A DNA stretch of 63,488 nucleotides. It comes from an uncultured Nitrospiraceae bacterium (GTDB taxonomy: Bacteria; Nitrospirota; Thermodesulfovibrionia; Thermodesulfovibrionales; Dissulfurispiraceae). Made by a program: the position numbers and the translations under genes. Under the pieces are notes generated by a model. That model saw nothing but the letters and a program-made list of their open reading frames with translations. It did not search any database and was not told where the DNA came from. The stretch lies in contig CAMTVO010000009.1 of assembly GCA_947085205.1 (NCBI GenBank), positions 1-63,488 on the forward strand, given 5' to 3'. Shown here piece after piece: positions 8,101 to 26,492 of the stretch; positions within the stretch are counted from its first letter, which is position 1, and every line of letters starts with the position of its first letter.

Positions 8101-8146
8101 TTATTCCTTCTGTCTTCCCTCAAGATTTAATAATGCACATCGTTTC

Positions 8147-8407
8147 CTAATACCTCTTCTCCTCCACGATCTTGCCGATAATTTGATACCGGTGCCCTTT
8201 CCTGATCTCCATATTCGCATATTTCGGATTGAGTGAGTGCAAGACGGTTGTTTCACCGTAAATCTTCAACTGTTTGAAGGCGGCTTCATCTTCATCGTTC
8301 TTCACGACAACATAGTCCCCTGATTTCGCCTCGACATGAGGATTCACTATGACAATCTCGCCCTCATGAAATTCAGTCCCCATGGAATCACCCTTAACCC
8401 TTGTCAT
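8147..8407 (-). pseudogene. S24/LexA-type peptidase domain fragment lacking the HTH
   Basis: RVKGDSM...GEIVIV...FKQL...IIGKIV; no N-terminal DNA-binding domain. Confidence 0.7.
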
Positions 8408-8499: not shown

Positions 8500-8577
<78 letters not shown>

Positions 8578-8585
8578 ACTATTGT

Positions 8586-8615
8586 AATTTAATGCATTTT
8601 TGCCTCGGCTGTCAA
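8586..8615 (-). promoter_or_regulatory. Element-supplied sigma70-like promoter for tRNA-Ala, in the integrase 3' end
   Basis: TTGACA-18 nt-TAAATT ending about 10 nt before the tRNA 5' end. Confidence 0.6.
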
Positions 8616-10726: not shown

Positions 10727-10801
10727 TTTTCGTCCTCCTGCGCTTTAAGCCCGCCGGCTGTTATTAATATATATATGCGTTGTGCACTATATTTTTTTGT
10801 T

Positions 10802-11374
10802 TTATTTTTTAATCCATTGAATAATTTTTTGAATGACGTTAATATCGCGGACCAGTTCGGCGTGATTGAGGTTAAAAATGGCGTATTCTGTCGACGGTAT
10901 AGACAGAACCGAGTCGAGGTCCACTACTCCGTCGTTTATCCCTGACAGATACCATTTTCTTGAGCTGGACGCCCCGGCGATAATGTATATCTCAGCAGTT
11001 GAAGGCGTGGTGCGAAAAATGAACGCCGGAGCATATCGATATCCGCCGTTCGGCGATGCGATCTGGATTATTTTCTTGATTTGTAGTTCGGGATAGCGGC
11101 CGGCTAATTCGCGAGCTACTAATCCGCCCCACGAATAGCCGATTATGGTTTCAACGTTTTCAATTTTTTTGGCGTCTAATTGTGATTTTATGCTTTCTGC
11201 CGCGGCAGATAACGGCATCATCGTAACAGGATATATGACGATAGCTGCGGGGATGCTCGCCTGCAAGAATGCCATTTGTTCGGCGCCGGTATTACTGCCG
11301 GGGATTATGATTGTTGTGCATTCCGCTGATATAGGCATCAGCAGGATAATCAATATCACAAGTGCGGTTCGCAT
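10802..11374 (-). CDS. Exported alpha/beta hydrolase (lipase/esterase-like)
   Basis: Signal peptide, GYSWGG nucleophile elbow, SPNGG, NDGVV and a C-terminal His. Confidence 0.8.
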   Translation of the reverse strand: MRTALVILIILLMPISAECTTIIIPGSNTGAEQMAFLQASIPAAIVIYPVTMMPLSAAAESIKSQLDAKKIENVETIIGYSWGGLVARELAGRYPELQIKKIIQIASPNGGYRYAPAFIFRTTPSTAEIYIIAGASSSRKWYLSGINDGVVDLDSVLSIPSTEYAIFNLNHAELVRDINVIQKIIQWIKK

Positions 11375-11466
11375 GTGATATATATGCTGCAATGCGGGGA
11401 TAGTTAGATATGGACGCCATCAAAATAATCGATTGTAGGGCATTTGGCGAGGTCATTTTTGCCTAT

Positions 11467-11497
11467 AAAAAAAAGGACAGGCGATTTAGCCTGTCCT
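11467..11497 (-). terminator. Rho-independent terminator after the cargo operon
   Basis: AGGACAGGC/GCCTGTCCT stem followed by a T-run on the minus strand. Confidence 0.75.
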
Positions 11498-11522
11498 GTG
11501 GGGGCTGTGGTTGGTTAGTGGT

Positions 11523-12350
11523 TTAATGCTGCGGCATGAACTTTGTGGGCGATACTGCTTGCTTGCCGCTCTTGGCGATCTCCCACGCTTTTTTATGCGA
11601 CATCACAATTTCTTTTGCTTTCTTGCTTGACTGTGAAACCCGATATTCTCCTGAATATCCGCCGAAACGCTGTCCATACCATTCCACGTTCCCAAACATT
11701 AGGCGGTTGGCTGCAAGGTCTATCTGTGCCACACCACACTGGATGTTTGTAAGGCTCCCGTTAAACCGGCAATTCCCAGCATCCTTGAGGATCTCATAAC
11801 TCTGCTTTATCTGCCCTTGCAGTCCATCCAAAAGCGTCTGTTCTATTATTATCCGCGATAATTCCTTAAGGTCTTCGTATCCTACCTGCTCGTTTGTAAT
11901 AAGCCTCGCCATCCTTTCATGTGCCTGTCCAATTATCGCCCCATACATTACAAGGCAGTTCTTGTATCGTTCTACGCTTTTTGGAGCCATGGCATTGGAC
12001 TGTGCGCTTGTATTCAGCACCTGTGCCATAATCGTATCATACACACCAGGAGATGTCTCAGCGCTCAGTCCAAAATCAGCAGGTTTACGAGGCTTGGAGA
12101 TTATCTTACATGATTTTAGTTCAGGATGTGTCTTTTCAAGGTTAGTAAGCACTGGGAAAAAAACAGCATCAAGCGATAGTTTAATTTCTACGCCCTGACT
12201 GCCCTCCTGCGCTTTTCTCTGGTTTATTGACCTTTCTTTTGTATCTTTCCTTGATTTTCCTGTGTCTATGTTAGTGTCCACCGAGTATGCTATGCCGTTA
12301 AGGCAATAAATGAACATAAACATTATTGCTACTGAAATAAAAGTTTTCAT
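11523..12350 (-). CDS. Uncharacterised exported protein
   Basis: 275 aa, signal peptide, several Cys; overlaps the upstream gene by 4 nt. Confidence 0.75.
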   Translation of the reverse strand: MKTFISVAIMFMFIYCLNGIAYSVDTNIDTGKSRKDTKERSINQRKAQEGSQGVEIKLSLDAVFFPVLTNLEKTHPELKSCKIISKPRKPADFGLSAETSPGVYDTIMAQVLNTSAQSNAMAPKSVERYKNCLVMYGAIIGQAHERMARLITNEQVGYEDLKELSRIIIEQTLLDGLQGQIKQSYEILKDAGNCRFNGSLTNIQCGVAQIDLAANRLMFGNVEWYGQRFGGYSGEYRVSQSSKKAKEIVMSHKKAWEIAKSGKQAVSPTKFMPQH

Positions 12351-13738
12351 TTTACATCACCTATTTTTTGTGTTAATGATTCAATCCATTCTAAATAATA
12401 TTTTCCATCGTTTTTGCACTTTTCGCCGCATTTGGTCATAATGTCCTGCGCTCTTTGAATGTCAGCTGTTGCTTTGGCTTTATCTCCGTTTTTTATATAT
12501 GCCTCTGCACTGTATAAATACGTAGAAACGCTCCAATATGGCGGGACATCTTCGGTGATAGATGTAAGTAACTGTATCATTTTTTCCGATATTTCTTTTG
12601 TTTTTTTAAAATCGCCTTTCATGTCGTATATATCATATAGATATGCATATGCTTGCATCTCTCCTGTTAACTTATCAGAAAGAGTTTTATTTTTCTTTGT
12701 GTGGTAAATTTCTATAGCCTCGTTAAGCTTTTTAATTGCGTCGTCGTAATTTTTATTTATCGTTATGTCAATAAGTGACCAATTTACCAGCACTATTGCT
12801 CGTACTAGCGAGTTATACGGGTCTGCATATATATTATACGCTGCCCTGCAGGTCACAATAACGTCATCTACATCTTTTTGTGCGATGTTAGCTCCTCTTT
12901 GTTTATCTACTGTCATAGCTTTATTGATACAATCGTCTCTGTATGAAAAATACTCTTTTTCTATTGCACTACAATAATTGCTAACCTTGTCTATTTCTTT
13001 AAGCTGCACTGATGAGGATATTATCTTCAATGCCTGTTTAGCATCAGCCTTTAAGTATGCAGCTAATAAGGCTTTAAAGTCTTGGGGCATATTTCCTTTA
13101 GATGCTTTCATAATATCCAGAAAACTTGTTAGAAAAGCATAAGCAGATTGGCGATTTCTGCTAATAAATTTAGAATGAGAATAATCCCATAGTTTACCTG
13201 TCATTCTTAACACATGTTCCTCAACTGGCTCTTTACTCTTACTTACTGCTTTATCTGCCTTGGCAGTAATGTATATAAATTTTCGAACAAGGTTAAGAGC
13301 CTCACTGTTACCGAATGCTTGATATCCCACATGTATATGGTTTAGCGTGTCAGCTATAGCGTTACACATTGTCTGCATGTTCTTAGTTCTCTCAAGTCCT
13401 AGTCCTATATTGGTACTGGCAATAATATGCCGCAAATCACCATAGCGCGCCTCGATGTTCTGGTCAATTGTATTATTCTTAGTGCATACTATATTTGTCC
13501 ACGTTATGTCAGCTAATTTTTCTGCGTCCCAAACATACACGTTACAATCCCCCCTATTGATATGTAATTTCTGCAATTTCTGTTTTTCGTGTTGTATGTC
13601 TACATTGCTGTAGTCTCTTTGTGTATTTTTAGACATAGTTTTCTTGTCTTCCTTCGTCGCTGCCTCTGTATGAGGTATATACATTATTGTTGTTAAAAAC
13701 ATCGCAATAAATGTAACTATAGCAATTAACTTTTTCAT
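12347..13738 (-). CDS. Uncharacterised exported helical/TPR-like protein
   Basis: 463 aa, signal peptide, C-terminal TPR-like motifs (YDDAIKKLNEAIEI; AEAYIKNGDKAKA). Confidence 0.75.
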   Translation of the reverse strand: MKKLIAIVTFIAMFLTTIMYIPHTEAATKEDKKTMSKNTQRDYSNVDIQHEKQKLQKLHINRGDCNVYVWDAEKLADITWTNIVCTKNNTIDQNIEARYGDLRHIIASTNIGLGLERTKNMQTMCNAIADTLNHIHVGYQAFGNSEALNLVRKFIYITAKADKAVSKSKEPVEEHVLRMTGKLWDYSHSKFISRNRQSAYAFLTSFLDIMKASKGNMPQDFKALLAAYLKADAKQALKIISSSVQLKEIDKVSNYCSAIEKEYFSYRDDCINKAMTVDKQRGANIAQKDVDDVIVTCRAAYNIYADPYNSLVRAIVLVNWSLIDITINKNYDDAIKKLNEAIEIYHTKKNKTLSDKLTGEMQAYAYLYDIYDMKGDFKKTKEISEKMIQLLTSITEDVPPYWSVSTYLYSAEAYIKNGDKAKATADIQRAQDIMTKCGEKCKNDGKYYLEWIESLTQKIGDVK

Positions 13739-13755
13739 AGCCCCCTCCTAATTTT

Positions 13756-14949
13756 TTATTTCTCCTTTTTCGTTAACTGAGAAACAAATTCATTTTTAAC
13801 CCCATTCCTTTTCCTGGCATATATCACTCCAATTACCAATCCTGCTACTGCTACTGCCACAATTACAGGAATTACAGGGATTGGACTGCCCTTGACTGTT
13901 ACAATCTGAACGCTTTTATCCTTTGCCTTGATTGCTGCCTCGAATTCCTGCCTCTGTCCCTGGAAAAAGCTGGCATCTGCGTCTGTCAAAAGGTTAGCTT
14001 TGATTTTTCGCAGAACACCAATAGCAGCCATATATTTGTCAGTCAATGGCATGTCGTCTATCAGCTTAACAAAACGATGAGTATCTGCAAGCCATTTAAC
14101 AAACGCAATGTCTGGATTGGTTTGATGCAGTTTCAATACTGTCTGTCCTGGTTTGAGTAGCAATTTAAGGGTATCCATATCTTTCTTGTATTCCTCGGAT
14201 ATCTTGACTGCCTCTTCTGTATTACGCGAGAGGCCATATACGGTTTGGCTTGCAAATGCATACCTTACAGATGGCTCTGATAGATGATATCTTGTTAGCC
14301 CTATATATTTAGTCAGAATCAAAACCTTATTTTCGTCCGTGAGTTTCGCATCCACTGCTATGTCCTCTATTGCCTCGGCGTTTCTTGCGATGAAAAACTG
14401 TTCTATTAATTCCTCTATGTTTCCGTTCTTATACGCACTTAAAGCCATTTCTGCCGCTGCCCAATATCGCTGGATGCTTTTATCAAAACCAAATCTTGTA
14501 TCCCCCAGCCACTCGACAAAGGCAAGTGTGTAATTTATGTTCACTTTTTTGCCCATTGTCTTGCCCTGTGATATTGAACGCTTTTTTGCGAATAGGTTTT
14601 CCTTGCTGCCTGTGGTGCCTGCAGAAGGTCCGCCCATACCATCTGGAGCATCTGCTTTAACGTTTGTATCTGTGCCTTTCTTACGTGTTATTGTCTTTTC
14701 TATGGTCAATTCAATTTTTTTCTCTACCGACTGGTAATCATCGATTGAGATGGGTATTCCCTCTACACCGGTAAGTTTGCCCTGATATATATTATTAAAT
14801 CCTGCTGCCATCCAATACACTTTTAGCGCACCTTGAGCTGCCTCGCATGAGTTATTCGTGCACTGGATGCTCCAATTGCCTGCCTCCGCACGAGGTATAT
14901 ACATTGTCATTGCTAAAAATGATACAATACTTGCAATTATTCGTTTCAT
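13756..14949 (-). CDS. Uncharacterised exported protein with C-terminal membrane anchor
   Basis: 397 aa, signal peptide, C-terminal TM followed by a basic tail. Confidence 0.75.
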   Translation of the reverse strand: MKRIIASIVSFLAMTMYIPRAEAGNWSIQCTNNSCEAAQGALKVYWMAAGFNNIYQGKLTGVEGIPISIDDYQSVEKKIELTIEKTITRKKGTDTNVKADAPDGMGGPSAGTTGSKENLFAKKRSISQGKTMGKKVNINYTLAFVEWLGDTRFGFDKSIQRYWAAAEMALSAYKNGNIEELIEQFFIARNAEAIEDIAVDAKLTDENKVLILTKYIGLTRYHLSEPSVRYAFASQTVYGLSRNTEEAVKISEEYKKDMDTLKLLLKPGQTVLKLHQTNPDIAFVKWLADTHRFVKLIDDMPLTDKYMAAIGVLRKIKANLLTDADASFFQGQRQEFEAAIKAKDKSVQIVTVKGSPIPVIPVIVAVAVAGLVIGVIYARKRNGVKNEFVSQLTKKEK

Positions 14950-15004
14950 CGTCTTTTCTCCTTTTTTTTAGGGGATGGTTCTCATCCCCTTTGTTTTGAG
15001 TAGT

Positions 15005-15400
15005 TTAGTGTTTTTTGAGTGTTATTTCAATTGTGCCGTCTGCTAACGGACATATCACGCGTTCGGTTGTTACGTTATCGATCGCCCCGCCGGAAATTTT
15101 TACAAATTCGGCGCGTGCGGTCGACAATACTTTAAGCGCCTCGGCCGCATTTGCAGCCGGGATTGTTTTCAGGTTAGCAGGGATGATCACTGTCCATTTT
15201 ATCTGCCGTTCCCCGCCTCTCCCCTCGTAATATCCGTTGCATTCGGTCGTGGTTGCCGCCGGCTCCGCCTCTGTCGCTGCAAATGCGGTTGCGGCAATGA
15301 GCGTGCATAGCGCCAGGATTAATACGATCGCGAGCGCGAACAGATATGATCCGCCGCGCCCCGCCTCAAAAATCGGTGATGCTGTTTTTACGGGTGCCAT
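15005..15400 (-). CDS. Small exported or membrane-anchored protein
   Basis: 131 aa, hydrophobic N-terminus with AxA, two mature-region Cys; preceded by the repeated leader. Confidence 0.65.
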   Translation of the reverse strand: MAPVKTASPIFEAGRGGSYLFALAIVLILALCTLIAATAFAATEAEPAATTTECNGYYEGRGGERQIKWTVIIPANLKTIPAANAAEALKVLSTARAEFVKISGGAIDNVTTERVICPLADGTIEITLKKH

Positions 15401-15481
15401 TTTAACCTCCTCGGGCTGTTGAAGGCCGGCGGCAATGCCGCCGGTGTTCCCTCTCTTTTGCCCTCCTTCTTATATATATGC
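15395..15481 (-). repeat. Repeated promoter/leader/RBS module, copy A
   Basis: Near-identical to 24173..24263 and 24515..24612; includes the CCGGCGGCA-TTGCCGCCGG hairpin and GAGGAGG. Confidence 0.9.
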
Positions 15482-15500
15482 GCTCTGCTGTTTTGTTTTT

Positions 15501-17315
15501 TTAATCATTTTCCAATTCGAGTTCCGCGCCTCGGTCGCGGTTATCCTTCCGCGCCTGTCTCTCGCTCTGCATTGCCGGACCGCCGTCCCGGTCCTCCCGT
15601 TCCCGCGATCCCGTTGCCGCTGCAGCAGCAGCGAGGATATCCGCCTCCGCCTGCATTATGTGTTCGAGCGATAGATCCGGCCGGCACACGAATGATTCCG
15701 TTACGTCCGAATATCCGCGGTACTCGAGCGTTACCGCGCCGTAATGGTAGCCCGGAAATTTTATCAATCCGTGCAAATCGCGGAGGTTCTGAATTTCCGA
15801 TGGTAATATTAGCCGCTCTGTTTTTTTCCGGCGCATCAGCGAAATGCCGTCGCGATTATCCTGAACACCCATAGAATGAGTCTCCTCGGTTTCAATATAT
15901 TCGCGTTCGCCGATTTTGTCCGATAGAAATTTAGCGGTATCTGGATCAGCAACTGAGAATATCAGGTTGGATCCGCACGCGTTAACGATTGTCTGCCGGC
16001 CGCTGTGGGTGTATATTTTATCGAGCTGTCCGATGTCCTGGATTCCGATCCATGCCGCGCCGCCCTTCGAGCGCGCGAGGGTTAACAATTTCTGGATTGT
16101 TGACAACCGCTGCAAAGTTCCGAATTCATCGAGGACGAAAAATATCCGCCTGTCGTAATCATCCGGCAGCGATAGTAATTTCCTGCCGAGTAGGTCAACG
16201 AATAACGATAGGATAGGGCGGAGCGTCGCCTCGATATCCGCATAACTCGTCACGAATATGATCCCGCCGCGGGCGTTCTCAATCCAGCGTTTTAACGAAA
16301 AATCGCCTCGCATTTTAGCCATATATTCGAACGATTTTACATATTGCATCATAACCGCGAAAACCGACAACGCCTGTTTGCTGCTGGCGTCCTCGATATA
16401 CCGATAGCCTCTCTCTCCGCCGCGGCAATCCTTCAACCACGCGCTGATATCCGCGCCTGCAGCGGTTACGGCTGCCCATATATCGGCGTTGGTGCGGAGT
16501 CGGTTTTGATACAAATAATGCAAAATCCCGCTAAAAACATCACGCGCGGCGTCGTTCCAAAATGGATCGTTACTACTGATTGCGGGAGGGATCAGCGATA
16601 CGGATACAGAGTCGATGTCCATTGCAGTTTCAATCTCGTTGAACAAACTCCAACCGACTGAACGCGTGTCCAGCGGATTGAAAATAACGTCCGTCGAGGG
16701 GTTGAAGAATTTGCAAAGGTAATCCCCTTTAAAATCATATATAACCGCCCGATCAGCGCGATCGCGGATATTGTCAATTACCCCGCGCATAGCGACCGTT
16801 TTCCCCGTTCCCGGCCTGCCGATTATGAACGCGTGTTTTGGCTCTGCGGCTACCGGCATTGCAACGTTGCCGATACGGATATGTGTTTTTTCGCCGGCTC
16901 GCCGGATCTGCCGGTTCAGCTCCTCCGCCGTCAATAATTGTGCGCCGCGGACGTATTTTTCAGCGCTCTGCTCCCGTGCGCGGGTGGAAAATTTGCGGAT
17001 AATCGCCGGATAGAAAATCCACGCGGAAAACGATAAAACGAATATCCATATACTTTTCATAAGCAGGCGGCCCGCGAGCGGGACCAATCTATCCAGCAGA
17101 ACAGTGAACTGCCCCTCCCTGATTGCATAACACGTGTAATTGATTACGATTGTCCACGGTTCGCGGTACCATATGTAACTGAGCGCGAGGGTAATTATTA
17201 CCTGAGCGATCAGTAGCAACAGCGCTATATGTAAATACATTTTAATGTTCATCTGGACCGCCGCCCACCATGTTTCGTGGCCCTTGAACGCCTGATTTTT
17301 TTTGTCCACGTTCAC
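15501..17315 (-). CDS. Type IV coupling protein (TraD/TrwB family)
   Basis: Two N-terminal TMs, RGAQL, Walker A GRPGTGKT, YDFKG, FNPLDTRS, Walker B LDEFGTL. Confidence 0.93.
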   Translation of the reverse strand: MNVDKKNQAFKGHETWWAAVQMNIKMYLHIALLLLIAQVIITLALSYIWYREPWTIVINYTCYAIREGQFTVLLDRLVPLAGRLLMKSIWIFVLSFSAWIFYPAIIRKFSTRAREQSAEKYVRGAQLLTAEELNRQIRRAGEKTHIRIGNVAMPVAAEPKHAFIIGRPGTGKTVAMRGVIDNIRDRADRAVIYDFKGDYLCKFFNPSTDVIFNPLDTRSVGWSLFNEIETAMDIDSVSVSLIPPAISSNDPFWNDAARDVFSGILHYLYQNRLRTNADIWAAVTAAGADISAWLKDCRGGERGYRYIEDASSKQALSVFAVMMQYVKSFEYMAKMRGDFSLKRWIENARGGIIFVTSYADIEATLRPILSLFVDLLGRKLLSLPDDYDRRIFFVLDEFGTLQRLSTIQKLLTLARSKGGAAWIGIQDIGQLDKIYTHSGRQTIVNACGSNLIFSVADPDTAKFLSDKIGEREYIETEETHSMGVQDNRDGISLMRRKKTERLILPSEIQNLRDLHGLIKFPGYHYGAVTLEYRGYSDVTESFVCRPDLSLEHIMQAEADILAAAAAATGSREREDRDGGPAMQSERQARKDNRDRGAELELEND

Positions 17316-17318
17316 CTC

Positions 17319-17507
17319 CTAATTGATTTTTTCTAATGTATCCGTGATAAAGGTTTTTAATTCCCCGGCGTCCATTTTCTCGAGTTCGTTTTTTCGATGA
17401 AGGATCGCCCTACCTATCGCCGCCGCCTGCTGATCCTCTAAGTTCCTCGCCAAATCCAGCAGCCTCTTGGCCTCTGCCCTGAGCTGGTCAGGTGTTCTCT
17501 TTCCCAT
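17319..17507 (-). CDS. Small relaxosome-accessory-like protein (Ti-plasmid TraC-like)
   Basis: 62 aa coiled coil followed by AIGRAIL; sits just upstream of the coupling protein. Confidence 0.45.
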   Translation of the reverse strand: MGKRTPDQLRAEAKRLLDLARNLEDQQAAAIGRAILHRKNELEKMDAGELKTFITDTLEKIN

Positions 17508-17521
17508 TTTCCATCACCTCC

Positions 17522-17704
17522 TTAGTCGATAAATTTTTCAAGGGTTTTAAATAAATATCCTGCAATGAAAGACAGCGGTAGCAGGACCACCAATACTAAT
17601 ATTTGTATTATCTCCGCCCGCCTTATGCATTCCATGCAGTTGTCGCTATCCGCCGTTACGCCGTCCTCGGCAAAATTGCAATTATCGCATTTCATATTTA
17701 TCAC
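17522..17704 (-). CDS. Small Cys-rich membrane protein
   Basis: CxxC...CxxC plus a TM segment; GAGAGGTG RBS. Confidence 0.55.
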   Translation of the reverse strand: MINMKCDNCNFAEDGVTADSDNCMECIRRAEIIQILVLVVLLPLSFIAGYLFKTLEKFID

Positions 17705-17721
17705 CTCTCCTTATATATGCA

Positions 17722-18423
17722 TTAAGCATTTTTCGTTTTTAAAAAACGGTAAATTTTAGATACAGGGATGTCCGTCTCCGCTGCTATCTGCCGATATGAA
17801 AAACCCTGTTTTCTGAGTTCGGCAATTTGAGCTTTGAGCGCGTCCTCGTCTGTTGTTTTCACTGTTTCACCGCCCTGCTGTTTCACTGTTTCAAGTGTTT
17901 CAAGTGTTCCCTGTTTCACAAAAACAGTCGAGGCGAGATATATCGAAACACCCTGAAGTGTGATAACCAAAAACAGAAAAACCACTGCCTTGCCCACTGC
18001 TATTCTGCCGCCTGCCTGCGCGGAGACTTGGAGCATTAGGTCCCTCAACCTCCTCTCTCTCTCCATTGTCTTGGTGGTGTATTTTTGACCATACTGGTAT
18101 GCCTGTTGAGTGGCTTTCAAATCTTCTGAAAGTATCTCAACCTGCTGCTTTTGAGTGAGCATTTTTTCGAGTTCAGTCTCGTTTGAAACCACAAAACTTG
18201 CCGCCGCCGCTACCACCGAAATTACATATAGAGGGACTAAAAAAATGAGCGATACCCGGCGCTGTCTCACCTGCATTGCAAGCGCGATGATCATCGCCTC
18301 TACAAGAATACTTGCAAGCCATGAAAACGCAGGGTTAGGCTCTATACCTGCAATGAAAATCTGCGTGTGAAAGGTAAGAAAAACCGCGGTTGCGATGACT
18401 ATGGTTAGTTTGAAGTATCGCAT
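17722..18423 (-). CDS. Multi-TM coiled-coil protein with C-terminal HTH
   Basis: About 4 hydrophobic segments; GFSYRQIAAETDIPVSKIYR HTH. Confidence 0.7.
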   Translation of the reverse strand: MRYFKLTIVIATAVFLTFHTQIFIAGIEPNPAFSWLASILVEAMIIALAMQVRQRRVSLIFLVPLYVISVVAAAASFVVSNETELEKMLTQKQQVEILSEDLKATQQAYQYGQKYTTKTMERERRLRDLMLQVSAQAGGRIAVGKAVVFLFLVITLQGVSIYLASTVFVKQGTLETLETVKQQGGETVKTTDEDALKAQIAELRKQGFSYRQIAAETDIPVSKIYRFLKTKNA

Positions 18424-18851
18424 CGCTTGCCCTCCTCGTCCCTAATTTTCCGCCTCCGCGCCTGAAAACTCATCGCCGATTTTTCCCCGATTGTCGGGGT
18501 CCATTCCATCGTCTGAATTATCGCTGCATAGACATCGGCAATGTCGGCCGCGAGGGTATCGAGGCGTGATTCAATCCGTTCAACCGCGCTCGGACCAGTT
18601 CGAGGTTTTGGTTTTAGCGCGGCAATGTCTGCCGCGAGGATTTCGAGTTTTTGAGAAATTTTCGATAGGTCGGCCGTGTCGATTTTTTGCATTAATGACA
18701 GAAATGTTTTGGCATTTTCCCGTTCCTGTTCGACGGCAGCGGTAATCAATTCTCGTATTGCCTGCCCGACAGTTTTGCCGTTTTTGAGCGCCTGCAACCT
18801 CGAAAACTCCGCCTCGGATAATCTTAAACCTATGAATCTGTTTTTTTTCAT
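18405..18851 (-). CDS. Ribbon-helix-helix relaxosome accessory protein (TrwA/MobC-like)
   Basis: FIGLRLSEAEFSRL...VGQAIRELI; next to the oriT candidate; GGAGGT RBS. Confidence 0.65.
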   Translation of the reverse strand: MKKNRFIGLRLSEAEFSRLQALKNGKTVGQAIRELITAAVEQERENAKTFLSLMQKIDTADLSKISQKLEILAADIAALKPKPRTGPSAVERIESRLDTLAADIADVYAAIIQTMEWTPTIGEKSAMSFQARRRKIRDEEGKRCDTSN

Positions 18852-19044
18852 TTTGCGTTTACCTCCGTTTTTATATATGCCAAAAACCCCGATTTTTTTG
18901 TAAAATTTGTTAAACATTTTTCATTAATTACAATGTTTAACAACCAAACCCGCACCAATACTGGATTTGCAGGGTAAAAAAAGTAGTGAAGTTTTACAAA
19001 ACAAAATTTCAAAAACCGCGCTAAGTCTTTGTCTTTTTTGTCTT

Positions 19045-19090
19045 TTTCGTTTTCGGCCTGCAAACGGAGATTGCGTTGGGTGTGGAAAAA
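19045..19090 (+). other. oriT candidate with F-like nic site
   Basis: TTGCGTTGGGTGTGG at 19071..19085 matches F TTGCGTGGGGTGT^GG at 14/15 positions; CGTTT/AAACG inverted repeat just upstream; intergenic. Confidence 0.75.
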
Positions 19091-19363
19091 AAGCGGGAAA
19101 CTCCTGATAAAAAAACAAACCCTTCAATTCGACAAATCCACGATTGATAAAAATGAAAAAAGCGGGTAGCCGATTTTGTAAAATCGACTACGTGCGGATA
19201 TAAAAAAATCGGAAATAGTATCCGAGTAAAACGAGGATTCTATTTCCGATTATCCGATGATTTGCAAAAAGGTGAGGCAGTTATTCTGAATTTTCCTGCC
19301 ATGAATTTTCGCCGGTCATGGCGGAGAAAAATCGGAAATAACCGCCCTGCCGTATCGCTGATT

Positions 19364-19744
19364 TTAAGCGCCGGCCGTTTCTGATTCTGCCGTTCCCCGC
19401 TCCTCATCTTTCACCAAAACGTAATCTTTGTATTTCCGTTTTGTTTTTTTGCTCTGGACCAGTCCGAGGAATTTTATAGCGATGTGGTCCCCGACTTTAA
19501 CATCCTCAGCGACTATCATTTGACGTAAAACCGAATTTATAAAAATCATAAATTTGCCGGTTCCGGTTTCGCCGTTTCCGGTCTCCATCTGAAGATATTC
19601 GGCGTCTCCGTTCTCGGTAATTGTCTCGCCCATTTCCACGACCGTCCCCTCGATAACCTCGTTTTCATTTGGCCTCCAAAAGAGGATGTCATAACCTTTT
19701 TGCCTTTCGTTTTCCTTCTCCTTCAGCTTATCCATCAGGTTCAT
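19364..19744 (-). CDS. Putative OB-fold (ssDNA-binding-like) protein
   Basis: FWRP..VIEG...VKVGDHIAIKFLG...YKDY pattern with acidic tail; AAAGGAGGTG RBS. Confidence 0.55.
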   Translation of the reverse strand: MNLMDKLKEKENERQKGYDILFWRPNENEVIEGTVVEMGETITENGDAEYLQMETGNGETGTGKFMIFINSVLRQMIVAEDVKVGDHIAIKFLGLVQSKKTKRKYKDYVLVKDEERGTAESETAGA

Positions 19745-19790
19745 TTTGTTTCACCTCCTTTCAAAAAAAAGTATTGTCTTTATAAAATCT

Positions 19791-19934
19791 TTACGCTGCT
19801 TTCCCCGATTTCATTTTTTCGATTGTTGCCTCGACGGTTATCCTAACCAGCCCCTTGAATTCAGATATGTCTCGCCTTCCAGCGATAACGTCCCGGGCCA
19901 TGTCCTCAAAAAAATTTTTTGTCGTTTCTGCCAT
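19791..19934 (-). CDS. 47-aa hypothetical protein (not in the ORF track)
   Basis: MAETTKKFFEDMARDVIAGRRDISEFKGLVRITVEATIEKMKSGKAA*; AAGGAGGTG RBS. Confidence 0.55.
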   Translation of the reverse strand: MAETTKNFFEDMARDVIAGRRDISEFKGLVRITVEATIEKMKSGKAA

Positions 19935-19955
19935 TTGTCATCACCTCCTTAAAGA

Positions 19956-22900
19956 TTATTTGGACCGCTCCATACCGCGGCTATCGTCCCGCGTTTTTTC
20001 CGATTTTCCGCTCTCGGATTTCTCCGTTTTGTCCCCGCCGCGGCTCTCGTGTTTCGCTGTTTCAGTCGTTCCTTGTTTCGCTGTTTCAGGCGTTTCAGTA
20101 GTTCGCTGTTTCACTGTTTCAGCGTTTCCGGTTTTTCCGTTTTCCGCGGAAACTTTTCCGGAGTTTCCGGAAATTCTTCCTGCGTCTGCCGGCTGTTTTA
20201 AAAATTCCGATTTTGAAAATGTTGTGTTCCCGGACGTGTGCGACGTGGCAACGTGGATGCTGCCGTTCGCGCGGAGTGTCGTAACTTCCACATCCTGTTT
20301 TGCGCGGGTGTTCGTAATTTTCACAACCTGTTTTGCGCGTTCAATCCGCCCGTCTTTGTGGCGGATAAATACATCGTATTTCCGGGTTGTGCTGTGATAT
20401 TTTTTATCAAAAATTTTTCCGAACGCGTTTTTAAATTCGTCTTTAACTCTCGATTTCCATGCGTCCGAGAGTTTTTCGGTTTTGTATTTCTCGGTTTTTG
20501 TTTTGGGGTCGTATGTCGTTTTTGTTGAAACAATAAACGATTTTATCCCCGCGGCTTTTTTTATGTCCTTCTCCTTCGCCGCCTTCTGCAGATCGCGGCG
20601 ATCGCGGTCTGTGAATTTTTTTGCAAATTTCCGGTATTTTTTGATGTCCTGTTCGTTCGTTTTTCCCGTCCGTTCCGCCCGCGCCCTGCCGCGGCTCTCT
20701 CTGCGGTCCTCTCGCTGGATGTCCCTGCGCTCGCGCTCGATAGCCTCGGCCGCCCTGTCCAGCGGGTGGGCTGCCCTGCTATCCTTCCGCGCCTCGTAAT
20801 CCAGCGTGCTGGTTTTCTGCTGTTCATTTTTTAGCTGTTCGCGGAAATTTTCTTTGTCGTTCGTGTAAATTTTGAGGCTGTGCTTGCCGCGGGTAACCGC
20901 GACATACGCCTGATTATAATTAACGCCGCTACTGGTGTCGGCGTGATATATCACATCTCGCGACGTCTGTCCCTGTGATTTATAGTCTGTAACGGCGTAG
21001 CCGTGGTCGATATAATTGTATTGAGTCCTGATATTAATAGCCTTCATGCCGCCGGTCTCCATTTTTACTGTTGCCCGGCCGTCCCGGTCAACGGATTGCA
21101 GCGTTCCAGTCTGCCCGTTTTTGACGTTGAGAGTTTTATCATTTTTTAAAAAAACGATTTTCTCCCCTTGTGAAAATGACTGTTGTTTTTCGCGATATAC
21201 TGCAAGGTGTTGGCCCTCACTTTTCAGGTCGATTTGGTGCGCGCCGCCCCCTGCCTCGACTGTGATTTTATGATTCTGCTGGTCAACAGATATTACCCGC
21301 CCCTCCGCTCCGGATCGTCCGATAATACCGGCACGGTTGACGATTATGCGGTCGCCGGGTTCGAACGATTGAGAAAAAATTTTCTCAATAGGAGAAAGAT
21401 TTTTCGATTCCCTGACTGTAAAAACATGCTCCTGCTGTCCGATTTTACCCTGTCGCTGTAAATCGGCTCGTATCGCCGAGTTCAGGGCATTCCGGTCGGC
21501 GTTGCGCGCGGTAACGATGATTGTGTTCATATGATTATCGCGGCTCGTGTAATCCTTGACGATAGTATCAAGCCGCCCCGCCCTATCGCTGATTTCAGAA
21601 ATTTTGTTCGTCGATTCTAATTTTTCCATTGCGCTGTCAATTTTCCTATCCGCGATATCGCGGATCACGCCCCTGTAATCCTCTGTTTTTTGCCGCTGAA
21701 TTTCTGACATTCTCACTGTAGTAAGGTCGCCGCTCTCCTGAAGTTTTTGAAACATTTTCCCTGCGGCGACTGATTGAAGTTGTTTAGTATCTCCCATAAA
21801 TACAACTCTCGCATTAGTCGCCTCTGCCCGTTCCAGTAGGCCGTGCATCTGTCTACTACCTAGCATTGATGCCTCGTCCACAATCCATAATTGCCGTTCG
21901 CCCTGCCGTTCGCCTGCAGCTAAAAACGAATCAATGGTCTGAGAACTGATCCCCGCCTGCGCTTCAACCTCGGCCGCCGATTTTCCCGTAAATCCGAGGC
22001 CTCGGACGCTGTAACCTGCCTCCGCCGCCTGCAGGCGAACGGTAGATAACATTGTAGTTTTGCCGGTTCCGGCGTCGCCCTGAATACCGATATAGCGGTC
22101 CTGCGATGTGAGGATATGCGATACTGCGTTTTTTTGCCCCGCCGTCAATGTCAATCCTCGCGCCTGTTCGAACGCTCCAATCCCCGCCTGCACCCGTTCA
22201 GGCGATAGGATAGCGTTTCCGGCGCCGCGGCCGTCTTGAACCATTGATACGATATCCTGTTCGGTTCTCAACATCTCCGCGGTGGTATATCGGTCGTCTG
22301 CGAGTCGGGCAACGTCGCCGGTTACTGTTGCGCGGTGGAACGCGCGCTCGATGTCATCTATCCTCGCGTTACCTACAGATAATTTTAACGCGGTGTCCGT
22401 GACATCCTTCCTGCTAAAAACCGATTCCTGCTCGGTTACGATCCTGCTGCCGGCGCGGACGTAATCGTGCTCGTTCCCGTGCGTGCGCCCCTGTGTCTGC
22501 GTCTGCTCCGAGGACTGCCGGATACCGCCCTGAACCTGCTCCCTGCTGTAGCCGATGTTCTCAAGCCTCTCCTGCCATGACTGCCTTACATCGTCCATGT
22601 TTACGTCTTTCTTGGCCTCACGGCTATCGAGACAAGCCATTTCCTTGAGCTTGCTTTCGCTGGCGTCGGGATATTGTTTTTTTAATTCTTCCACTGCTGC
22701 CTGTATTTGTTCGCTCCTGCGTGAAAACTCGTCCAAAACCTGTTTGTCGACACCTTGAACCTCGAAAAAACCGCGGCTATCGGTCTGGATTGCATAACCG
22801 AGATCCTTCATGCTCGCGGCTAATTCAGACCTGTATATCTGCCCGATGTGCATTTTGTTGGAATATAATTCCTCATTCGACAATGCGCGCCATTGCCCAT

Positions 22901-23399
22901 CCTCGCGCTGTGTCATGTTCATAACAACGGCGTGCGTGTGCAATTGCGGGTCGAGTTCGCGGCTGGTGTAGTGGTCGAATTTCGCTATTGCCATGTTGCC
23001 TGTGTTTACCCTCTCCGTCTGCCCGTCCTGCGTTACTCGTGCCTGTGCGTAATGCTGTTCAACGTATTCAAGGGTTTTTTGCACGGCGGCAGCGTGCGCG
23101 TCGCGGATGCGTTCGTCTCCGAGTATTTCAGCTGCTATTGATACTGATTTCGGTGCAGAAAAAGTGAGGTCGACGCCTGCGCGGTGTTCGTGGTTCTCTC
23201 CGCCTCCGGCGATTAACTGGTTGCCCTGCGGGTCCCTGCCATTAATGAGGTTTTCAAAATCCCCTTTTTGGATTTCGCCGGATAACCTTAATGCCTCCGC
23301 GCCCGCGCCCTGCCATTGTCCATCGGCACGGGTGTAATAGTTATCGCGCTGGTAATAAGTCGAGGCCTGCCCTGAACTGACATTCGTTATACTTACCAT
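19956..23399 (-). CDS. MOBF relaxase-helicase (TrwC/TraI-like)
   Basis: YY..DNYY, DLTFSAPKSVS, HYTSRELDPQLHTH; helicase motifs GDAGTGKT, DEASM, GDTKQL, HGYAVT..KSQG. Confidence 0.95.
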   Translation of the reverse strand: MVSITNVSSGQASTYYQRDNYYTRADGQWQGAGAEALRLSGEIQKGDFENLINGRDPQGNQLIAGGGENHEHRAGVDLTFSAPKSVSIAAEILGDERIRDAHAAAVQKTLEYVEQHYAQARVTQDGQTERVNTGNMAIAKFDHYTSRELDPQLHTHAVVMNMTQREDGQWRALSNEELYSNKMHIGQIYRSELAASMKDLGYAIQTDSRGFFEVQGVDKQVLDEFSRRSEQIQAAVEELKKQYPDASESKLKEMACLDSREAKKDVNMDDVRQSWQERLENIGYSREQVQGGIRQSSEQTQTQGRTHGNEHDYVRAGSRIVTEQESVFSRKDVTDTALKLSVGNARIDDIERAFHRATVTGDVARLADDRYTTAEMLRTEQDIVSMVQDGRGAGNAILSPERVQAGIGAFEQARGLTLTAGQKNAVSHILTSQDRYIGIQGDAGTGKTTMLSTVRLQAAEAGYSVRGLGFTGKSAAEVEAQAGISSQTIDSFLAAGERQGERQLWIVDEASMLGSRQMHGLLERAEATNARVVFMGDTKQLQSVAAGKMFQKLQESGDLTTVRMSEIQRQKTEDYRGVIRDIADRKIDSAMEKLESTNKISEISDRAGRLDTIVKDYTSRDNHMNTIIVTARNADRNALNSAIRADLQRQGKIGQQEHVFTVRESKNLSPIEKIFSQSFEPGDRIIVNRAGIIGRSGAEGRVISVDQQNHKITVEAGGGAHQIDLKSEGQHLAVYREKQQSFSQGEKIVFLKNDKTLNVKNGQTGTLQSVDRDGRATVKMETGGMKAINIRTQYNYIDHGYAVTDYKSQGQTSRDVIYHADTSSGVNYNQAYVAVTRGKHSLKIYTNDKENFREQLKNEQQKTSTLDYEARKDSRAAHPLDRAAEAIERERRDIQREDRRESRGRARAERTGKTNEQDIKKYRKFAKKFTDRDRRDLQKAAKEKDIKKAAGIKSFIVSTKTTYDPKTKTEKYKTEKLSDAWKSRVKDEFKNAFGKIFDKKYHSTTRKYDVFIRHKDGRIERAKQVVKITNTRAKQDVEVTTLRANGSIHVATSHTSGNTTFSKSEFLKQPADAGRISGNSGKVSAENGKTGNAETVKQRTTETPETAKQGTTETAKHESRGGDKTEKSESGKSEKTRDDSRGMERSK

Positions 23400-23575
23400 A
23401 GGCCCGCCGTTACAATATTGAGCGAGGCAATCAGCGCTGCAAATGTGGCCATGTTGCGGACAAAAAATGATATTGTCGCCGCCCTCTCGCTGTTAATACC
23501 GGTCCGCGTTAATTGTGTGATAATCGCGGAGTCGATTTTGACGATTATATTATCGATTTTTTCTATAGGTCTCAT
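23393..23575 (-). CDS. Small membrane protein
   Basis: About 60 aa from MRPIEK, hydrophobic C-terminus; overlaps its neighbours. Confidence 0.45.
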   Translation of the reverse strand: MRPIEKIDNIIVKIDSAIITQLTRTGINSERAATISFFVRNMATFAALIASLNIVTAGLW

Positions 23576-23900
23576 GGTTAATTCCCTCCTTTTCCGCCTG
23601 CTCGATTGATTTTTCGAATTCCGATTGGAATTTCTCTGCATTTTCTTCCCTTTCTTTTTCTTTCTTTTTCATCTCCTGAAATTCCTGCTCCGCTTGCTGT
23701 GCCCGCTGTTCGTATTTTCGTTTTTTGTCGTTTTTAAAGTCGCTGTTAAATTCGTTGTTGAACTCGTTCCAGTCCCTCTCAAAACGGGCGTCGTCCTTTT
23801 TCATTTCCACGTCCAGTTTCGACTGCTGACTGACAACATAATAAAAAATCAGTCCGAGAACGGGAGACGTAAAAAGCAGAATTTTAAAAAGCCCACTCAT
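23550..23900 (-). CDS. Membrane-anchored coiled-coil protein
   Basis: N-terminal TM followed by a charged helix; coupled to xis. Confidence 0.6.
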   Translation of the reverse strand: MSGLFKILLFTSPVLGLIFYYVVSQQSKLDVEMKKDDARFERDWNEFNNEFNSDFKNDKKRKYEQRAQQAEQEFQEMKKKEKEREENAEKFQSEFEKSIEQAEKEGINHETYRKNR

Positions 23901-24187
23901 ATTTCCACCTCCTGCCGCGCCGCGTCTACAATTCGGTCAATCCGCGCCCTGTCGCCTGCAGTAGCCCCGCCGCCGCCTCCAGGATACTGGACGGACCTAC
24001 GTGGGTTTGCCTCCGCGGTTTTTTCCGCGAGCCATTTTTTGATTGCCTGCGGGTCAAAACGCACGCAATGGGTGGATAGTTTGATGACCGGAATTCGCCG
24101 GTAGAAAATCATCTGGTATATACCCTGTTTTTTCATCCCCAGAAATTCCGCGACCTCGTTCACATTCCATAATTTTTCCTCTGCCAT
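23897..24187 (-). CDS. Excisionase-like HTH protein
   Basis: LWNVNEVAEFLGMKKQGIYQM...IPVIKL...VRFD...IKKWL. Confidence 0.85.
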   Translation of the reverse strand: MAEEKLWNVNEVAEFLGMKKQGIYQMIFYRRIPVIKLSTHCVRFDPQAIKKWLAEKTAEANPRRSVQYPGGGGGATAGDRARIDRIVDAARQEVEI

Positions 24188-24263
24188 TTTTAAACCTCCT
24201 CGGGCTGTTGAAGGCCGGCGGCAATGCCGCCGGTGTTCCTCTTTTTTTTGCCCTCCTGCTTAT
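24173..24263 (-). repeat. Repeated leader module, copy B
   Basis: About 91-bp direct repeat of 24515..24606, including the first codons MAEEK. Confidence 0.9.
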
Positions 24264-24529
24264 CCTTCTGCCTGTAGGGCGGCGTAGCCGCCCCTAGTCA
24301 GACAAAATGTGTACATGAGCCGCAATGCAGGGCGCGCCTGCCGCATGTAGGCGTGGATTGATTCGATCATTTCACCCGATTTTTCGGCGGCTTCCTCTAT
24401 CGATAAATTATCGAAAAACCGGAGGAAAACCACGGCGCGGCAGCGAGGCGACAATCTCATGATTGCCTGCCTGACTGCCTGTTCCAGCTCCTCTATATCA
24501 ATGTCATCCATTAGTTTTTCCTCTGCCAT
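24260..24529 (-). CDS. Sigma70 region-4-only protein
   Basis: AVRQAIMRLSPRCRAVVFLRFFDNLSIEEAAEKSG; paralogue of the C-terminus of 25335..25943. Confidence 0.8.
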   Translation of the reverse strand: MAEEKLMDDIDIEELEQAVRQAIMRLSPRCRAVVFLRFFDNLSIEEAAEKSGEMIESIHAYMRQARPALRLMYTFCLTRGGYAALQAEG

Positions 24530-24612
24530 TTTTAAACCTCCTCGGGCTGTTGAAGGCCGGCGGCAATGCCGCCGGTGTTCCCTCTTTTTTTTGCCCTCCT
24601 GCTTATATATGC
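24515..24612 (-). repeat. Repeated promoter/leader module, copy C
   Basis: Matches copies A and B; includes GCATATATAA. Confidence 0.9.
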
Positions 24613-24630
24613 ATCGCCGCGGCGATTTTT

Positions 24631-25338
24631 TTAAGCGCGGGCGCGGGCGCGTGCCTCCGCCTGTTTTTCTGCCCGCCGGCGAGCGGCTGCGAGGCGTGCC
24701 TCGGCCTCCTGCTCCTGCCGCCGTAGCTCCGCCTGTTCCGCCGCCGGGTTCCAGTCGGGCGGTGGTGTTAATGCGCGAAGGTAGGCGGAAATATTCTTTA
24801 TGTTTTCCGGGCGGATTTTGCCGGCGCGATACAGATACAGAAAATATTGGATATTCAGGGCTGGCACGGCGGCGCTGATGCGCTCGGCAGGGAACAGACT
24901 CTGTAATTCGGATATCGCAGAATCACACACACGAGTGTGATTATTATTCTTACTATTCTTATTATTCTTATTACCCTGCACGAAAACCGACTTTCGGGAA
25001 AACCGAAAGTCGGTTTTCGTGCTTTCGGTGCCGCGGCGCGGACTCTCGCGGACGGTCCATGACCAGCCCGCAAATTTTCCACCCGCGCCCCGGACAGGTT
25101 CAATAATGAGATAACCGTTTTTTTTAAGGTCATTGATCGCTGTTTTAAGCGCAGACCTTGAATTGCATGATCTACTAAGCAGGTCCGAATAGTACAATTT
25201 CCAGCCGTCCGGCCGGCTGATCAGATATGTATGCAACCCCTTCGCCGCCCAGCTCATCCGCCCGTCCTCGACCGCCAATAGGCTGATCGACCTATATTTT
25301 TGGGTGCGTTCTATTCTGCACGCTATTAGATCGCTCAT
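24631..25338 (-). CDS. Phage/plasmid-type HTH replication initiator
   Basis: MSWAAKGLHTYLISRPDGW...AINDLKKNGYL winged-helix pattern; internal inverted repeat and AT-rich tract. Confidence 0.7.
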   Translation of the reverse strand: MSDLIACRIERTQKYRSISLLAVEDGRMSWAAKGLHTYLISRPDGWKLYYSDLLSRSCNSRSALKTAINDLKKNGYLIIEPVRGAGGKFAGWSWTVRESPRRGTESTKTDFRFSRKSVFVQGNKNNKNSKNNNHTRVCDSAISELQSLFPAERISAAVPALNIQYFLYLYRAGKIRPENIKNISAYLRALTPPPDWNPAAEQAELRRQEQEAEARLAAARRRAEKQAEARARARA

Positions 25339-25943
25339 TGTTTCGCCTCCTCGAAGAGCGGCAATGCCGCCGTTGGCGCGGGTTTGCGGCTGGTGGTTGG
25401 AGCGTAATCGGACAGTAGACAGCGCAATACAGCGCTCGCCTGCTGCAAGCATGTGTGGATTGCGCTGATTGTCTCACCTGTTTTTCCGGCAATCTCTTCG
25501 AGGGTTAACTCATTGAAAAACCTGAGAAAAACAACGGCGCGGCAGCGAGGAGAGAGTTGAGATATCGCCTGCCGGACCGCCTGTTCCCGTTCCGCCGCCT
25601 CCAGTGAATGGCTCTGGTTCATGGCGGAGGCAGGTTCATATCCGATGTCGTCAATGGACTGCTCGCCCGCGATTTTGAAGATTTTGAGATTCCTCGCCGC
25701 CTCGCTCAACATCTCCTTAGTGCTGTAACCCCTTGATTTTGCGAGAATAAACGCCTCGTGCGCTACGTCGTCCGCGTCCTGTCCGTATGCGACGCGCATC
25801 CGCGCGGCGCGTAAAAAACGGGAGTATGTTATAATGTCAGCGTCCTCGCGGCACTCTGTCGCGGAGACCTCGCCCTCGGCGCGCTCTGGCTGCGAGTCTG
25901 GCGCGCCGAAGGTTTTTTCTGCTACTACTGTTAATGTTTTCAT
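25335..25943 (-). CDS. ECF-like sigma70-family factor
   Basis: Region 2-like DADDVAHEAFI and region 4 LSPRCRAVVFLRFFNELTLEEIA. Confidence 0.75.
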   Translation of the reverse strand: MKTLTVVAEKTFGAPDSQPERAEGEVSATECREDADIITYSRFLRAARMRVAYGQDADDVAHEAFILAKSRGYSTKEMLSEAARNLKIFKIAGEQSIDDIGYEPASAMNQSHSLEAAEREQAVRQAISQLSPRCRAVVFLRFFNELTLEEIAGKTGETISAIHTCLQQASAVLRCLLSDYAPTTSRKPAPTAALPLFEEAKQ

Positions 25944-26144
25944 TTTTTACCTCCGTATCGTTCCGAGGCCGGCGGCGCCTGCCGCCTGTTCTGCCCCTTA
26001 ACGGAATAATACGGAGGTTTTTATTTCCATTTTTTGCCTATTTTCTGCGTTTCCCTTATATTTCAATGAGTTATCCATGTTCTATAAGAAAAACTTATTG
26101 ATTGATTTAAAAATAAAATAGGAAATGGCGGTTTTTGGGGGTTT

Positions 26145-26312
26145 CTCAAACCCGTTAGTTGACTAACGGGTTTGAGGGATTTTCCCAAACCCGTTACTTG
26201 AGTAACGGGTTTGGGGATTTTTGAAACCCATTACTTGAGTAATGGGTTTGGTTTTTTTCAAACCCATTAGTCAACTAATGGGTTTAGGGATACCGTTTAG
26301 TAACTAAACGGT
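26145..26312. repeat. Array of five palindromes (four 26-bp AAACCCRTTAST-NN-ASTAAYGGGTTT plus one variant)
   Basis: Cores at 26148..26173, 26187..26212, 26224..26249 and 26260..26285; variant at 26292..26312. Confidence 0.92.

Positions 26313-26452: not shown

Positions 26453-26492
<40 letters not shown>

Follow-up and report, generated by a model that had tools for sequence, protein, structure and literature searches.

A promoter-like word ahead of five gene units of an integrative element

A 17.9-kb element integrated at a tRNA-Ala gene of an uncultured Nitrospiraceae bacterium (Dissulfurispiraceae, GenBank assembly GCA_947085205.1) carries five copies of a word made of an A-tract and a GCATATAT core, which is probably the -35/-10 promoter of five gene units and would be read by the extracytoplasmic function (ECF)-like sigma factor that the element itself encodes. 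The element lies within a 63,488-nucleotide stretch of contig CAMTVO010000009.1, which is the whole stretch analysed here and is termed the window. What the sequence shows directly is the word itself, where it stands, how strongly it is enriched and that it co-occurs with the sigma gene; judged from the sequence, the regulon is real and probably functional.

The window contains five matches to AAAAA-N10-18-GCATATAT, at the sites and on the strand reported in an earlier reading of the same DNA (the first-pass annotation), whereas shuffled sequences contain 0.06 matches on average and 2 at most. All five sites are on the minus strand, which is the coding strand of the element, and each stands ahead of element genes. 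Predicted promoter 1 (24605..24632, A7 at -20, GCATATATA) precedes the gene of an 89-amino-acid (aa) protein, xis, small genes and the relaxase gene; predicted promoter 2 (18873..18899, A7 at -19) a 148-aa ribbon-helix-helix (RHH)-like gene and a 233-aa membrane/helix-turn-helix (HTH) gene; predicted promoter 3 (17713..17740, A5 at -20) two small genes and the coupling protein gene; predicted promoter 4 (15474..15502, A7 at -21) the cargo genes from 15400 to 11523; and predicted promoter 5 (10771..10798, A7 at -20) four small genes (from 10726) towards the integrase gene int. In ascending coordinate order, the A-runs (5-7 nt) start 20, 21, 20, 19 and 20 nt before the G of the core, and the next ATG follows this G at a distance of 52, 81, 25, 29 and 83 nt.

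Local duplication or module shuffling of a single leader could in principle have scattered such copies without any common reader, given that an 87-nt leader is present in three copies, that the 89-aa gene is a duplicate, and that about 20 nt are common to the sites of a sister element described below. This origin is nevertheless very improbable, since the spacer between A-tract and core differs in sequence at all five sites while the spacing stays constant at 19-21 nt, the leader copy ahead of xis lacks the word, and the core is found again in elements with a relaxase identity of just 30%.

The GCATATAT core alone occurs 12 times in the window as compared to 2.5 expected, and 9 of these 12 copies fall within the element. 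Three of the nine are located inside cargo open reading frames (ORFs), at 12495 on the minus strand and at 12825 and 13817 on the plus strand, have no A-run and are probably background. Another core-only site without A-run (11380..11387, minus strand), anticipated by the first-pass annotation as a partial copy near a lipase start, is situated 13 nt ahead of the ATG of an alpha/beta-hydrolase gene (11374) and is also found in the sister element. No Shine-Dalgarno (SD) sequence fits in the gap between this core and the ATG, and the hydrolase message is likely leaderless, with a start that would lie 12-13 nt after the G. This site also bears on whether the word works at the RNA level, enhancing translation or serving as a protein-binding site in the leader. 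Its invariable location on the coding strand, often near an SD, would agree with such a role, but we regard it as very improbable: the hydrolase gene leaves no room for an SD, the G is never less than 9 nt from an SD-like word, with distances clustering at 12-15 nt and extending up to 60-80 nt, and a spaced upstream A-tract suits a DNA promoter.

No exact GCATATAT was found directly ahead of the 202-aa sigma gene, the Rep-like gene or int. The circuit therefore needs input from a host promoter, and the first-pass proposal of a self-contained circuit could not be upheld.

A sigma-like protein encoded by the element

The 202-aa ORF (25335..25943, minus strand) comprises a region-2-like three-helix domain, region 4 and a C-terminal LPLF tail. 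The first-pass description of this product as an ECF-like sigma factor stands for region 4, which matches Pfam PF08281 with an E-value of 3.5e-10, and is less secure for region 2, with an E-value of only 0.16, below the Pfam cut-off. The structural model (predicted local distance difference test (pLDDT) 77, predicted template modelling score (pTM) 0.38) displays three confident helices at residues 29-85, a flexible linker and a four-helix domain, which superposes on region 4 of E. coli sigmaE with a Z-score of 10.9 and a root-mean-square deviation (rmsd) of 1.4 Å over 69 residues. Full-length structural matches to AlgU and other sigmas were obtained with high rmsd, which leaves the region-2 fold putative. 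Over regions 2-4, the family profile can be aligned to RpoE and SigL, and the neighbours of the 202-aa protein in a language-model atlas are clusters of region 2+4 sigmas at 0.96; a profile of diverged members matched no sigma among PDB sequences.

With its 202 aa and two helical domains joined by a linker, the protein has the size (about 200 aa) and the absence of regions 1.1 and 3 that define ECF sigmas. ECF sigmas are typically autoregulated and have an adjacent anti-sigma gene, whereas here no GCAT site followed by five A/T (GCAT+W5) is present upstream of 25943 and the next gene is Rep-like.

The 89-aa protein (24260..24529, minus strand) is 49% identical to residues 91-178 of the sigma and has neither region 2 nor the tail. 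It was rejected as a second complete sigma, and the first-pass view of it as a further sigma factor gives way to that of a region-4-only duplicate of the 202-aa protein. It is probably recent and dispensable, and could compete for the -35 or for the polymerase flap; a second region-4 copy of this kind is absent from the other elements examined. A different departure is seen in a 128-aa family candidate of another genome (G077C83, L058:17665-18051), in which a four-cysteine zinc-ribbon-like stretch stands in place of region 4 and the tail is kept.

The word and the sigma gene mostly occur together in related elements

Across the class, 390 genomes were searched with an alignment of the 233-aa protein, the relaxase domain and a 20-sequence sigma profile, and sites were counted as GCAT followed by five A/T, 14-100 nt ahead of SD-bearing starts. 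Eight loci without relaxase match, mostly an isolated 233-aa homologue, were excluded from these and the other counts, and G302C56 (weak sigma match) and G321C78 (left end missing) were left out of the comparison of sigma-positive and sigma-negative elements. The 17 sigma-positive elements have 71 sites in 32.3 kb of upstream windows and the 13 sigma-negative ones 4 in 11.8 kb, the same pattern occurring at 0.42/kb in host upstream DNA. Among the 24 permutations of A, C, G and T, GCAT ranked first in the sigma-positive set and was unremarkable in the sigma-negative set. After dropping one near-duplicate per group, at least two sites were present in 12 of 16 sigma-positive versus 0 of 12 sigma-negative elements, kin not being independent and p-values overstating the contrast; the ratio is 7/11 versus 0/12 when the two discovery elements and three motif-led elements are also excluded. 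Mapped on the relaxase tree, the sigma label requires five changes, three of them forced by well-supported branches, and is thus not the trait of one clade.

The 12 best sigma-profile matches in the 390 genomes (E up to 1e-15) are located beside a MOBF relaxase in 11 cases and beside xis/int in one; seven of the 12 had themselves gone into the profile, and an eighth closely resembles one of its members. Leave-out profiles link G027 (5e-17), G036 (2e-6), G002 (3e-5) and C34 (2e-4) to the family well, and G077 (0.02) and G233 (0.15) weakly. A word-seeded protein search returned the query only and an exhaustive search recovered the subfamily. No match was found in viral contigs searched with the sigma and 233-aa alignments, in metagenome contigs searched with a 126-aa alignment, or in plasmids searched with the G027 sigma, and a scan of genome contigs with a 22-nt motif gave one match, on an unrelated contig.

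Several loci encountered in this survey are of separate interest. The window element and its relaxase-bearing relatives make up a whole group that is inserted at tRNA genes, has MOBF relaxases and lacks a recognisable mating pore, a combination not known to the 2017 review cited below. G303C7 (L102:5376-8385) is a minimal element at tRNA-Ala consisting of a CI-like gene, the sigma gene, a Rep-like gene, xis and int, in which neither a relaxase nor a motif site was found. In G036C9 (L012:7807-10652) the relaxase gene is broken by several frameshifts, with the sigma and its sites intact. Isolated homologues of the 233-aa membrane/HTH protein, several of them near HU-like genes, have no relaxase nearby (L014, L035, L036, L037, L043 and L045).

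The A-tract follows region 4

When proteins were classed by a Pfam HTH or region-4 match, AAAAA was present at positions -24 to -14 in 12/16 sites of the HTH class as compared to 9/49 sites of the no-HTH class, it being understood that A-tracts had been noticed by eye before the count and that the single site of G302C56 is among the 49. Without the window element the HTH class retains 8 of 12, and a control window gave 1 in the HTH class and 7 in the no-HTH class. Such co-variation is expected if the sigma of the element reads a bipartite promoter, and is not expected of a host factor. Loss of region 4 together with predicted -10-only promoters, which the window protein does not display, is found in relatives such as G002C80 and G233C28.

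A sister element and the sigma factors of the host

The same genome carries a sister element with the same backbone (G000:C34:4807-24000), integrated in tRNA-Thr. Its nine GCATATATA sites all fall on the coding strand, their upstream part being a tighter GAAAA..AAAT at -13. The first gene (G000:C34 5694-6254), downstream of which come those of an AAA protein and a RepA-like protein, encodes a 186-aa protein of a different sigma subtype, which has no BLAST similarity to the window sigma, no Pfam match and no usable match in the language-model atlas. In a profile comparison the two subtypes could be linked across 55 columns belonging to the region-2-like part (probability 87%, E 4e-6), and the model of the sister protein (pLDDT 79) has three confident helices at residues 17-73. 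Since the GCATATAT core is thus common to an element with a very different sigma-like protein, the regulon cannot be called private, as it had been in the first-pass annotation.

Outside the two elements the word is scarce. GCATATATA is present at 17 sites in the elements (0.46/kb) and at 40 sites in the remaining 1.85 Mb (0.022/kb), being 21-fold rarer per kb there, so that equal frequency in the host chromosome, which would have spoken against a promoter of the element, does not hold. An SD and a start codon follow 12/17 element sites versus 7/40 other genome sites, and host upstream windows contain only 2 GCATATATA sites.

These counts also concern the possibility that a host alternative sigma, FliA or sigma54, reads the word and that the element sigma is incidental. 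TAAA..GC..ATA resembles the sigma28 pattern, and TGCA the sigma54 -12 box. The host genome does encode a 260-aa FliA-like sigma, and the hosts of related elements in genus g33 contain, outside the elements, 3-8 TGCAT-W6..GGAGG sites as compared to 0-2 for a reversed control. Against this, the promoter of the host flagellin gene reads TAAAG-N15-TCCGATAA, with a core that differs from the element word, GG at the sigma54 -24 position is found in 1/64 sites, host upstream windows have the two sites mentioned above, and the word is missing from sigma-negative elements. Neither host alternative sigma fits, given the flagellin core and the sigma54 spacing, and an origin of the regulon in either is hardly probable. 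Neither the CCGATAA -10 of sigma28 nor the GG-N10-GC spacing of sigma54 is seen in the word, and on these comparisons host sigma70, sigma28 and sigma54 were rejected as its readers.

A conserved C-terminal tail

In a 20-sequence alignment of the family (28% mean identity) the C-terminal L is invariant and the following F nearly so, the tails including QLNLF, QPRLF, QPCLF, QMCLF, QLALF and DLPLF. A loose (Q/D)xxLF-like tail terminates 16/17 element proteins versus 0/94 other sigma-like matches and 11/1094 host ORFs; leaving aside four proteins that were picked by their tail, the ratio is 12/13, or 8/13 for the strict Q form. Members that lost region 4 retain the tail. The consensus of the beta-clamp-binding motif is QL[SD]LF, and the phage Mu protein MuC activates transcription via the clamp with QHDLF and QPDLF (PMC12867686); in T4, gp55 is homologous to sigma region 2 and carries a clamp motif at its C-terminus (PMC7892883). 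By analogy, the tail suggests binding to the host beta clamp and a gp55-like coupling to replication. It may possibly be a degradation tag or a site for another partner instead. Modelling host DnaN in complex with residues 168-202 of the sigma gave scores of 0.23, 0.36 and 0.12, a result used neither for nor against binding.

Exceptions and the case for another reader

Several observations, in addition to the weak region 2, weigh against a promoter read by the element's own sigma. The tail of the window protein, ALPLF, lacks the consensus Q, and G036C9 has A-tracts and no Pfam HTH match. Four sigma-positive elements have no or one counted site (G303C7, G083C20 and G099C100 with 0, G084C51 with 1), three of the four being cut by contig ends and two showing a near-match by eye. 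Conversely, two good A-tract/GCATTTA sites stand in G249C77, a sigma-negative element on a cut contig, in whose genome no sigma turned up; the search used also missed the G223 candidate, so that the label 'negative' is an insensitive one. In genus g33, four elements with 6-10 sites apiece have a first gene that adjoins a CI-like gene and whose product ends in QxxLF, but the leave-out profile does not link these four proteins to the family (E 0.44 and E 7.9 for two of them, the other two being missed). What speaks for them is their position, the tail and, in 3/4, a D-V-x-x-E-like helix, and they are accordingly candidates only. Sites of one element are not independent and some are duplicated, as with the 87-nt leader, and the motif and tail patterns were written after the data had been seen.

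G249C77 (L049, oriented 5857-6912) lies beside a five-tRNA cluster and has an HTH gene fused to a methyltransferase-like part; this sigma-less element is possibly a satellite activated in trans.

Alternatively, the word could be bound by a different protein of the element (the 233-aa HTH protein, the RHH-like protein, Xis or Rep), or the sigma-like protein could be an activator or co-factor of host sigma70 and not a sigma in its own right. The core is kept although the sigma-like proteins are only 17-25% identical, activators of the MuC type act with sigma70 and the clamp (PMC12867686), and the sites of G249C77 occur where no sigma was detected. We consider this explanation unlikely all the same, as G098C212 and G243C115 possess a relaxase, a coupling protein, xis and 233-aa homologues yet have 0 sites, no TAnnnT hexamer stands at a fixed place in the core, and the A-tract tracks the HTH of the sigma. 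What survives of the first-pass reading is a predicted promoter, probably served by the element's own sigma, with a word that is enriched in the element, precedes operon starts, tracks the sigma gene and has an A-tract tracking the region-4 HTH; its private and self-contained character does not.

Organization of the element

The element is bounded by a 40-bp direct repeat (100% identity) of the 5' half of tRNA-Ala(GGC), with attL at 26453..26492 and attR at 8538..8577 (both on the minus strand), the latter inside the restored tRNA-Ala gene (tRNA at 8500-8575). The gene order is sigma-like, Rep-like, 89-aa, Xis, TrwC, small accessory genes, TrwB, cargo, hydrolase and integrase. All of the following genes are on the minus strand. 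A 235-aa winged-helix protein (24631..25338), whose Rep role is proposed from its sequence, overlaps the sigma stop codon, and Rep-like homologues come after the sigma in G036C9, G084C51 and G024C8 too. The excisionase-like HTH_17 protein Xis (23897..24187) matches Pfam PF12728, the MOBF (TrwC) relaxase-helicase (19956..23399) PF08751 (E 4e-92), the TrwB-type coupling protein (15501..17315) PF10412 (E 5e-106) and the tyrosine integrase (8589..9704) PF00589 (E 9e-36). The 148-aa RHH-like gene (18405-18851) has a NikA-like counterpart in the sister element.

Mating-pore families of the type IV secretion system (T4SS) were absent from the element ORFs scanned with Pfam. With an integrase and att repeats at the target gene, and a relaxase and coupling protein without mating-pore genes, this is an integrative mobilisable element (IME). 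No match to the VirB4 family (PF03135) was found in the host genome, which is 89.7% complete, and transfer therefore likely needs a helper. Among sequencing runs, four DNA sets of a single study and no RNA set were listed as carrying the sequence, and contigs aligned to the element revealed no joint, which has no bearing on excision.

Four palindromic repeats of about 26 bp (26130..26285, no strand assigned) separate attL from the sigma gene and may be an operator, iterons or a terminator, that is, control or replication sites of this element. The 87-nt leader is found at 15374-15460, 24163-24249 and 24505-24591 and forms a strong GC hairpin (-27 to -29 kcal/mol) immediately before the SD, a similar hairpin being present ahead of the sigma gene. 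At 8580-8615, the element supplies the restored tRNA-Ala with a TTGACA-type promoter, which shares sequence with a GCAT+W5 word at 8595 and would be directed towards the sigma gene once the element is excised as a circle. The DNA outside attR (4417-8407) contains a fragment of an S24 peptidase, as well as a restriction-modification gene of the Eco57I type whose N-terminal part is split off by a stop near 7621.

Proposed mechanism and relation to known systems

We propose that a host sigma70-type promoter would turn on the sigma gene, which comes first in the element. A promoter of this type is present at 26607-26578, just outside attL and directed into the element. In several relatives a divergent CI-like repressor gene, absent from the window element, adjoins the sigma gene; a site also precedes this repressor gene in some g33 elements and would provide negative feedback there. 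The region-2-like domain would then take the conserved (T)GCAT and AT-rich core as -10, with transcription starting about 12-13 nt past the G, and region 4 would read the A-tract as -35, relatives without region 4 using the core alone. Xis, the relaxase, the relaxosome accessory gene, the coupling protein and the cargo would in this manner be switched on together, the mating pore being borrowed from a helper for transfer. Finally, the (Q/D)xxLF tail would bind the host beta sliding clamp, as T4 gp55 does on gp45, and expression would rise on replicating or nicked element DNA. Clamp coupling is the weakest step and, argued by analogy, falls somewhat short of an even chance.

The closest parallel is Tn916, in which the sigma Sig7-8 (Orf7/Orf8) encoded by the integrative and conjugative element (ICE) drives its excision (bioRxiv 10.64898/2026.10.01.756105). 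As in that account, an integrative element would have its own region 2+4 sigma driving xis and transfer genes. There, two subunits act at a single main promoter, Psig7, under auto-activation, and the Gram-positive ICE also encodes a T4SS of its own. The present family differs in having a single chain, five to ten dispersed sites per well-covered element and no site before the sigma gene, and in consisting of MOBF elements without recognisable mating pore and with a clamp-motif-like tail. A split of the Sig7-8 type is not seen here, both regions being assigned to the 202-aa chain and the 89-aa protein being an extra region 4.

As with gp55, gp33 and gp45 of T4, a sigma region-2 homologue with a C-terminal clamp motif is predicted here, and upstream promoter DNA is not conserved for gp55, as in the family members without region 4 (PMC7892883). 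T4 is, in the same source, a lytic phage with a phage-encoded clamp and co-activator, whereas the clamp would here be host DnaN; and unlike gp55, many members keep region 4 and the -35 A-tract. Phage Mu MuC/Mor likewise offer a mobile-element transcription factor with Qx[D/E]LF motifs for the host beta clamp, as predicted here, but MuC is, in PMC12867686, a DNA-binding activator acting with sigma70 and not a sigma-fold protein. Group 4 (ECF) sigmas such as RpoE and SigL share the size, the region-4 fold and the region-2-like helices. They differ in that the present proteins have a region 2 below the Pfam cut-off, a very short inter-helix loop and an extra tail, no evident anti-sigma gene and no autoregulatory site, and a region 4 that is lost or replaced in several members.

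The element resembles canonical IMEs in its integrase, relaxase and coupling protein without T4SS; the 2017 review on these elements (PMC5704250) knows of no canonical IME with a MobF relaxase and mentions a sigma-70 gene only as the cargo of one element. Our literature search, whose coverage was partial and excluded most subscription journals, returned no description of the family, of its promoter, or of a clamp-tailed sigma on a non-phage element.

A broader reading, which we put forward tentatively and hold to be somewhat less probable than its negation, is that of a single-chain sigma family for which the host beta clamp enhances transcription, making it the cellular equivalent of the late transcription of T4. 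Its members would range from a full ECF-like form with a -35 A-tract to a gp55-like form that has region 2 only and promoters reduced to the -10; nicking or replication of the element would license its excision and transfer genes for expression, and sigma-less or co-resident GCAT elements would be activated in trans. The family would go beyond the one main promoter and split protein of Tn916, where an element-encoded sigma driving transfer has been demonstrated, by providing a multi-promoter version with a predicted consensus. The loss of the -35 element together with region 4 forms a natural series in which sigma domain shedding and -10-only promoters become testable, and such small pairs of sigma and promoter could find use as orthogonal parts for gene expression. 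If the tail does bind DnaN, clamp-coupled sigmas would not be confined to T4-like phages.

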